Source: a virus (Duplodnaviria; Caudoviricetes). Taken from it: a stretch of DNA of 64,000 nt. Positions 21,123-21,405 of this stretch are shown here, piece after piece; the first letter of the stretch is position 1; each line of letters begins with the position of its first letter. The translations under genes were made by a program, and so were the position numbers. The stretch is from the IMG/VR virus record IMGVR_UViG_3300025389_001063. One strand, 5' to 3'. The notes under the pieces were generated by a model. It saw only the letters and a program-made list of their open reading frames with translations. It ran no database searches and was not told the DNA's origin.

Positions 21123-21405
21123 GGCTATAGGTCCTGTTTGGTCGAAGTAGTTCGACCCTCATCGAGTCCACAATTGTGGTCAGACTTTGAGTACCGTTAA
21201 ACAATGCTCCTAAAAACCTTGGAAACTAGGAACGAGTCCAAGGCATCGCAAGATGTGTCGTGGTAGGTTGGGAAAGCACAGAGCCCGTGGAGCGTAAAAA
21301 TACCTACTTCCGTATCTCGGCTGGTGTAACTCACATGAAGTTATCGAGATTGGTGGAACCGTAGTAGGTTCCATCTGACTGATATAATCTACATGAAATT
21401 ATCTC
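21123..21405 (+). ncRNA. Candidate structured ncRNA (unclassified) with predicted pseudoknot
   Basis: 47.5% GC over 21121-21360 (counted), no credible ORF, several perfect 6-9 bp helices and a GNRA tetraloop; strand inferred from GNRA loop and flanking genes. Confidence 0.65.

Follow-up and report, generated by a model that had tools for sequence, protein, structure and literature searches.

What are the two similar 27-nt repeats that lie close together behind a homing endonuclease gene (HEG) in the virus record IMGVR_UViG_3300025389_001063 (Duplodnaviria; Caudoviricetes)? The record was analysed as one stretch of 64,000 nt (the window), which represents a T4-like myovirus with about 32% GC, and both repeats are located in the 3' half of a 393-nt gene-free stretch between the HEG and the gene for a 286-aa protein (p286). 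As described in a first-pass annotation made from the letters alone, the repeats (21319-21345 and 21377-21403) agree at 20 of 27 positions, all seven differences are transitions, each copy can be folded on its own (UAACU/AGUUA and AUAAU/AUUAU around YACAUGA), and a 9-bp hairpin, GGUGGAACC/GGUUCCAUC (21352-21376), stands between them. The repeat stems differ between the copies by one compensatory C-G to U-A change. A purine/pyrimidine-degenerate version of the 27-mer has only two matches in the 64 kb, which are exactly the two repeats (0.00 expected in shuffled sequence), and a repeat search recovers both as one family (D2) with a spacing of 58 nt, the same distance that separates the ACAUGAA present in both copies. 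The comparative analysis shows a conserved structure and a sequence family found in no RNA catalogue searched, within which the repeats would be the paired boxes of a single-copy, pseudoknotted non-coding RNA of about 280 nt encoded on the + strand.

Homologues were collected by scanning IMG/VR with the two-box pattern first and then with wider patterns, which gave 37 loci; later scans gave at least 120 viral and at least 120 metagenome loci, the metagenome scan leaving the box sequence free, and more than 240 homologous loci, a lower bound, were fetched in total. A covariance model of the 3' domain (R1, 150 positions) has a single match in the window (21255-21399, 136 bits, E 1e-31), which covers the model in full length (1-150), and the window contains the family core consisting of GUCG, the helices P_b/P_e, AAAUACCUNNUUCC, the helix P_d, box 1, the hairpin P_c with GGUUCCGUCUGAC, and box 2. 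In the closest relative, L048, the homology begins at about 21118, directly after the HEG stop codon.

The evidence that carries our interpretation is found in the boxes. Among the 167 unique members at the listed loci, ACAUGA is present in both boxes in 124 and is replaced by another string in 43, and the listed members show about 22 box types in all. The non-canonical boxes include GCAUGA, ACGUGA, ACAUAA, ACAGAA, ACAGGA, GUAUGA and ACAUCAA, and further GAUCAAC, AUCAUCAA, UCGUCAA, GGGAAAU, GGUUAAUGUAA, ACAGAAUG and AAAACUCAUG. The same string of at least 7 nt occurs in both modules in 42 of the 43 variant members, the remaining one ending at a contig end, and no mixture of a canonical and a variant box was seen in any of the 167 unique listed sequences. 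The string shared by the two modules has a mean length of 7.9 nt, compared to 5.0 nt for mismatched module pairs, and the in-register identity pairs 132/229, 133/230, 135/232 and 139/236 are among the top mutual-information pairs. The box signal is one of identity covariation and not of complementarity: the box cores are always identical within an RNA and different between lineages. The distance between the boxes is 51-65 nt across the family (median 58), and the transitions-only difference noted in the window extends to the family: directly 5' of the shared string, box 1 has the triplet CUC and box 2 has UCU in about 90% of 166 members. One-box, "collapsed" variants were not seen, the listed viral loci without box 2 all ending at contig ends.

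The repeats had been proposed to be a pair of equivalent functional sites, and this part of the earlier proposal is borne out, in that the cores are conserved and vary jointly; this would be expected of a dimer-binding platform or of twin sites that have one reader in common. It had also been asked whether an alignment of homologues would show conserved ACAUGA loops around a variable intervening hairpin. The loop sequence is kept in the 124 members mentioned above and changed, always jointly, in the other 43, while variability of the hairpin was not found. P_c is among the best conserved parts of the RNA and the repeats are what varies, which does not agree with the suggested analogy to a repeat-spacer-repeat unit. 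Nor do the repeats and the hairpin form a minimal unit by themselves; they are not autonomous, but the 3' part of the larger pseudoknotted RNA. Finally, the suggested display of ACAUGA in hairpin loops is not a property of the family, as a stem of at least 4 bp is present at box 1 in 38% (21% expected) and at box 2 in only 9% (15% expected). Box 1 instead lies in a large loop closed by P_d and not by a small hairpin of its own.

As to the structure itself, compensatory changes are present in four helices and one pseudoknot. P_b and P_e are paired in 99% and 97-99%, respectively, with compensatory changes from UA to CG (17 sequences) and from GC to AU (26 sequences). The pseudoknot that joins the P_e loop to bases 5' of P_b (model columns 6-8 with 28-30) is 93.5% paired and has compensatory changes in 3/3 pairs (GC/UA/AU; AU/UA/GC/CG; CG/UA/GC/AU); the window has GUG/CAC, a compensatory variant of the GAC/GUC found in most members. 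An earlier guess for the pseudoknot, GGUCAGA with UCUGACY, was dropped since the P_e loop covaries with the GAC 5' of P_b. As P_d is blurred in the alignment by length variation, it was scored sequence by sequence, and a contiguous helix of at least 5 bp is present in 70% of 82 members compared to 32% in shuffles. Its helix types covary (GUCUCGG/UCGAGAU, GUCUUGG/UCAAGAU and GUCUA/UAGAC), and columns 99/166 are UA in 25, CG in 20 and AU in 9. P_c is 95% paired, with the pair types CG/UG/GU/AU/UA and CG to UA, and its 3' strand GGUUCCRUCU (GGUUCCGUCUGAC) is nearly invariant. In the 5' half, the P_a loop contains the invariant motif GGAACGA (21229-21235), of which RNAalifold pairs GGAA (21229-32) with UUCC just after P_b (21308-11) in a predicted second pseudoknot; both strands are invariant in 48 sequences, and covariation therefore speaks neither for nor against this pairing. 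Relatives have insertions of up to about 100 nt at the position of P_var. A possible pairing of ACCUACU with AGUAGGU is present in the window only and is not conserved. Taken as a whole, the structure scores above 500/500 shuffles and every slid control. Read on the + strand, the helices contain many U-G and G-U pairs (one P_c pair is CG in 51 and UG in 30), which places the RNA on that strand.

This kind of covariation also bears on the possibility that the element acts at the level of DNA, with the boxes as direct repeats for crossover or binding, similar to the cores of site-specific recombination or to iterons, and with the surrounding conservation being incidental. Recombination cores and iterons must match within an element yet differ between elements, as the boxes do. 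However, the helices in which the repeats lie covary in the manner of RNA and contain many G-U pairs, no collapsed one-box variant is present among the listed loci, there is no recombinase or Rep gene nearby, and a spacing of 58 bp is very short for synapsis. We therefore consider a DNA-level element very improbable.

The sequence of the region also speaks against a coding function. There is no + strand open reading frame (ORF) of at least 40 aa in 21117-21509, and the indels in the family are not multiples of three; on this evidence both a protein-coding reading and a programmed translational bypass of the T4 gene 60 type were rejected.

The RNA was looked for in several collections. Searches of the window against Rfam (4227 models) gave no match at gathering score, and the segment 19400-21700 has none at E up to 10; among 28 related loci, 20 have no match at gathering score and 8 have none at E up to 1. 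Polynucleobacter-1 (RF01718) matches neither the window (E up to 10) nor the 28 related marine loci, and the 5' domain of the window is of another type. A scan for tRNA and tmRNA genes found none. A blastn search with the window region and a typical member gave no match in 50,697 cultured phage records, a covariance model search gave none in the whole genomes of four cultured Kyanoviridae with the GIY-YIG-only gene, and a literature search found no description of the twin-box RNA. Among uncultured T4-like phages of marine and fresh waters, contigs with the RNA number in the hundreds and include genomes of 100-330 kb. The conservation of the RNA is comparable to that of a ribozyme core, yet the family is absent from Rfam. 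Three contigs in Crocinitomicaceae and Neomarinimicrobiota metagenome-assembled genomes (L280-L282) carry the RNA together with phage genes (gp46 with 66% identity, GIY-YIG, p286, or the 247-aa protein of L007). These are likely phage contigs which have been mis-binned, or possibly they give hints about the hosts.

The position of the RNA directly behind homing-endonuclease-type genes, the compactness of the pseudoknotted fold, its many invariant unpaired bases, and the hairpin which follows box 2 in many relatives might suggest a relic of the HEG cassette, such as a degenerate group I intron, or alternatively a riboswitch with a pseudo-symmetric aptamer. The Rfam searches, which included RF00028 and its subtypes (window, E up to 10; the 28 related loci), gave no such match. 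Moreover, the element does not divide a gene into two halves: the upstream ORF has its own stop and the downstream ORF its own start. The RNA is kept in relatives without the HEG, and if the boxes contacted the ligand of a riboswitch, they would not be replaced by about 22 different sequences. Such an origin or function is scarcely credible.

Two segments that are kept mutually identical while drifting freely between lineages constitute an unusual signal, which points to a principle of dual-site recognition, and we know of no other folded RNA with boxes that behave in this way. The most cautious statement is that the RNA has two equivalent recognition sites on a rigid pseudoknotted scaffold, with a lineage-specific sequence that is read twice by the same kind of partner. 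The scaffold, made up of the 5' junction, P_a, P_b/P_e with the loop pseudoknot, P_d and P_c, would hold two unpaired, equivalent segments about 58 nt apart and fix their spacing and orientation, box 1 being in the loop closed by P_d and box 2 just 3' of the invariant P_c hairpin. Since the same new sequence always appears in both boxes, it may be expected that one partner reads both, and we infer that the boxes are equivalent sites that carry the specificity and are read by one two-fold partner. As a general mechanism we lean towards such a two-fold trans partner, be it protein or nucleic acid. One candidate is an RNA-binding protein, homodimeric or tandem, in co-evolution with the boxes; another is a trans nucleic acid that is encoded at a different place, of which either two copies or two sites would be engaged. 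Binding might be followed by sequestration, by processing at both boxes or by delivery. If the reader were identified, a new interaction between phage and host, or a programmable RNA tool, could come to light.

Several results weigh against recognition by a two-fold trans partner. Our searches gave no partner for the boxes: no protein family was found to track the box type, and the family of the upstream nuclease (GIY-YIG-only or PDDEXK_15) does not track it either. In 1.1 Mb of phage DNA from the flanks, complements of the boxes show no enrichment (63 observed, 92 expected), and this speaks against a nucleic-acid target in the vicinity. For one small protein family, the evolution of about 22 different 7-nt specificities is much to ask. 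The element is only presumed to be transcribed, and the scan of the window gave no + strand promoter or terminator.

The same data are relevant to the more specific idea that the boxes are guide-like segments which base-pair with a trans nucleic acid, such as an RNA of the phage or the host, or DNA in an R-loop at an origin, and provide the same address for two target copies. The boxes are unpaired within the RNA and vary fast and freely at nearly every position, yet stay identical, which base-pairing could bring about more readily than recognition by a protein. On the other hand, the flanking DNA has no excess of reverse complements of the box, as given above, and no consistent complementary site was found within the RNA or its flanks, neither inside the 3' domain (mutual information and aligned 5-mers) nor in the 330 nt upstream and 130 nt downstream (exact 7-8-mers, and longest helix compared to shuffled boxes). 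The aligned 5-mers gave a sole candidate, UCUAC with GUAGG, which is in competition with P_b and is possible in only 61% of the variants. A seed of 7 nt is short for specific targeting, and an R-loop on the template of the RNA itself leaves the identity of the two boxes unexplained. Guide-like pairing appears doubtful to us, although its chance is not negligible. A more far-reaching version, in which the boxes are a freely reprogrammable address and the scaffold presents two copies of a 7-10-nt guide to two target copies encoded elsewhere in host or phage RNA or DNA, is unlikely; if true, it would represent a new class of RNA-guided phage effector or decoy that is respecified by rewriting both boxes.

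It may also be considered that the boxes are twin processing sites, cut by a sequence-specific endoribonuclease or by the RNA itself, to release a product of about 58 nt centred on P_c that is perhaps ligated or circularised. The most conserved hairpin has one of the two identical sites on either side, their spacing is constrained, and small nuclease genes usually adjoin the RNA. However, no self-cleaving ribozyme of Rfam matches, the family of the neighbouring nuclease does not follow the box type, and GIY-YIG and PD-(D/E)xK nucleases are as a rule DNases. Twin processing sites are in our opinion decidedly improbable.

With recognition by a two-fold trans partner as the preferred reading, the RNA can in some respects be compared to known systems. 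GOLLD (RF01998) and ROOL (RF03087) are likewise large, intricately folded and often phage-borne non-coding RNAs with many invariant unpaired bases, found by comparative metagenomics, but the twin-box RNA is far smaller and has no sequence or model similarity to them. The conserved loops of GOLLD and ROOL were later shown to make specific RNA-RNA contacts, and the symmetric kissing loops of OLE and GOLLD switch between palindromes (PMC12286853). The twin boxes, in contrast, are not kept palindromic, and since variants such as ACAGAA, ACAUCAA, GGGAAAU and others are no palindromes, we rejected a kissing interaction in which the palindrome CAUG would join the two boxes. In the guanidine-II (mini-ykkC) riboswitch, two tandem modules also show the same short conserved loop sequence, but those loops are fixed (ACGR) and pair with each other, while the twin boxes vary, are not self-complementary, are not surrounded by conserved hairpins and have no Rfam match. 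As in a CRISPR repeat-spacer-repeat unit, identical repeats bracket a segment, match within a locus and differ between loci; here the conservation is inverted, the "spacer" P_c being nearly invariant, and the repeats, never more than two, are part of a larger folded RNA. No cas genes are found among the neighbouring genes in the window (gp46, Hc1, GIY-YIG, baseplate genes).

A functional likeness may also be sought in short RNA sites that occur in pairs. The boxB elements of lambdoid nutL and nutR are read by N, and dual GGA sites are read by a CsrA dimer; in both systems, as may be the case for the twin boxes, two equivalent short sites in one genome or RNA have the same protein reader. The nut sites of lambdoid phages are also different between phages and matching within one phage. 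The twin boxes differ from the nut and CsrA sites in that they do not form hairpin loops with a fixed shape, and they are located 51-65 nt apart in one folded RNA and not in two transcripts.

Table 1. Positions of the twin-box RNA, its parts and the neighbouring genes in the window.
Feature	Position	Strand	Remark
Whole twin-box RNA, ~280 nt	21118-21403	+	5' limit, start of L048 homology; 3' limit, end of repeat 2
5' domain, multi-helix junction	21130-21203	+	compensatory changes seen by eye
H1	21130-32 with 21193-95; 21135-39 with 21199-203	+	
H2	21140-46 with 21151-57	+	GGUCGAA/UUCGACC vs GAUCGGA/UUCGAUC vs GAUCUAG/CUAGAUC
H4	21158-61 with 21188-91	+	CUCA/UGAG vs CACC/GGUG
H3	21168-71 with 21176-79	+	different in each lineage
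P_a hairpin, CCUUGGA/UCCAAGG	21217-21243	+	covarying pairs CG/UA/AU and UG/AU/GC
P_var, small GCAA-capped hairpin	21244-21255	+	pairs 54-89 and 55-88 with CG/UA/AU/GC
Pseudoknot, G21260-U-G21262 with C21277-A-C21279 (P_e loop)	21260-21279	+	mutual information
P_b (21263-68 with 21302-07), enclosing P_e (21269-72 with 21284-87)	21263-21307	+	
P_d, AUCUCG (21314-19) with CGAGAU (21345-50)	21314-21350	+	closes loop holding box 1
Repeat 1 (module 1)	21319-21345	+	box 1 core CACAUGAAG, 21332-21340
P_c, 9-bp hairpin (10 bp in most relatives)	21351-21376	+	95% paired
Repeat 2 (module 2)	21377-21403	+	box 2 core UACAUGAAA, 21390-21398
gp47	16821-17834	+	
gp46	17831-19609	+	
Basic 88-aa ORF	between gp46 and Hc1-like gene	+	
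Hc1-like protein	19861-20055	+	
GIY-YIG-only (SegE-type) gene, 137 aa	20056-20469	+	PF19835, E 8e-31
GIY-YIG/NUMOD3 HEG, complete	20439-21116	+	between GIY-YIG-only gene and RNA
Gene-free stretch, 393 nt	21117-21509	+	45% GC (flanks ~32%)
Tandem hairpins HP1 and HP2	21424-21452 and 21453-21472	+	upstream of next gene
p286, 286-aa low-complexity protein	21510-22370	+	
gp26-like hub	22591-23478	-	
Portal	26573-28279	+	

The order at the locus is gp46, Hc1, the GIY-YIG-only gene, the inserted HEG, the RNA and a late gene. The HEG overlaps the GIY-YIG-only gene by 31 nt, and its stop codon directly precedes the first base of the RNA. Since L048 has an identical gene order and keeps the RNA, but is without the HEG, the latter is an insertion between the GIY-YIG-only gene and the RNA. 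The conserved RNA gene seems to attract mobile nuclease genes, the HEG of the window being situated exactly at its 5' edge, and the RNA gene may be a homing target of the inserted HEG. The GIY-YIG-only gene is present upstream on the same strand in 97 of the 112 listed loci with an upstream ORF, and the p286 family follows the RNA in 71 of 114 listed loci. In L108/L098, L132 and L051 a PDDEXK_15 nuclease gene precedes the RNA, and in some further loci the RNA stands behind genes without assigned function. An obligate link between the RNA and the GIY-YIG-only gene was rejected, as cultured Kyanoviridae have the gene without the RNA and the RNA also occurs behind PDDEXK_15 or other genes. PDDEXK_15 (PF24608, about 170 aa), which takes the place of the GIY-YIG-only gene at L108:4100-4609, L132:1178-1702 and L051:8216-8728, is a second family of small nucleases adjoining the RNA. 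Small nuclease genes next to a highly conserved RNA gene would fit homing-type mobile genes that target conserved DNA.

In L001 (2487-2965), the slot after gp46, Hc1 and the GIY-YIG-only gene holds a non-homologous, GC-rich gene-free stretch of about 400 nt and no twin-box RNA, and the slot behind these genes may host alternative structured RNAs. A family of proteins of 166-175 aa without a Pfam match is repeatedly encoded about 0.5-1 kb upstream of divergent-box RNAs with AUCAAG-type boxes in L208, L209, L195 and L168. The p286 protein is rich in Pro and Ala and contains the internal near-repeat PNQAPNNVPTKAP twice; Pfam gave no significant match for it (Pex14_N below threshold only) and PHROG gave none.

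Downstream of box 2, the hairpin HP1 has the loop GAGUUUACGA in the window and HP2 is UGAUGAGC-GUUA-GCUCAUCA. At least 108 loci each contain a single copy of the HP1 loop of the family, GAGCGNNAGCGA, and its stems covary; the loop is also found in L001, which is without the twin-box RNA. HP1 and HP2 are a conserved module separate from the twin-box core, and are probably a leader or regulatory element of the p286-family gene.
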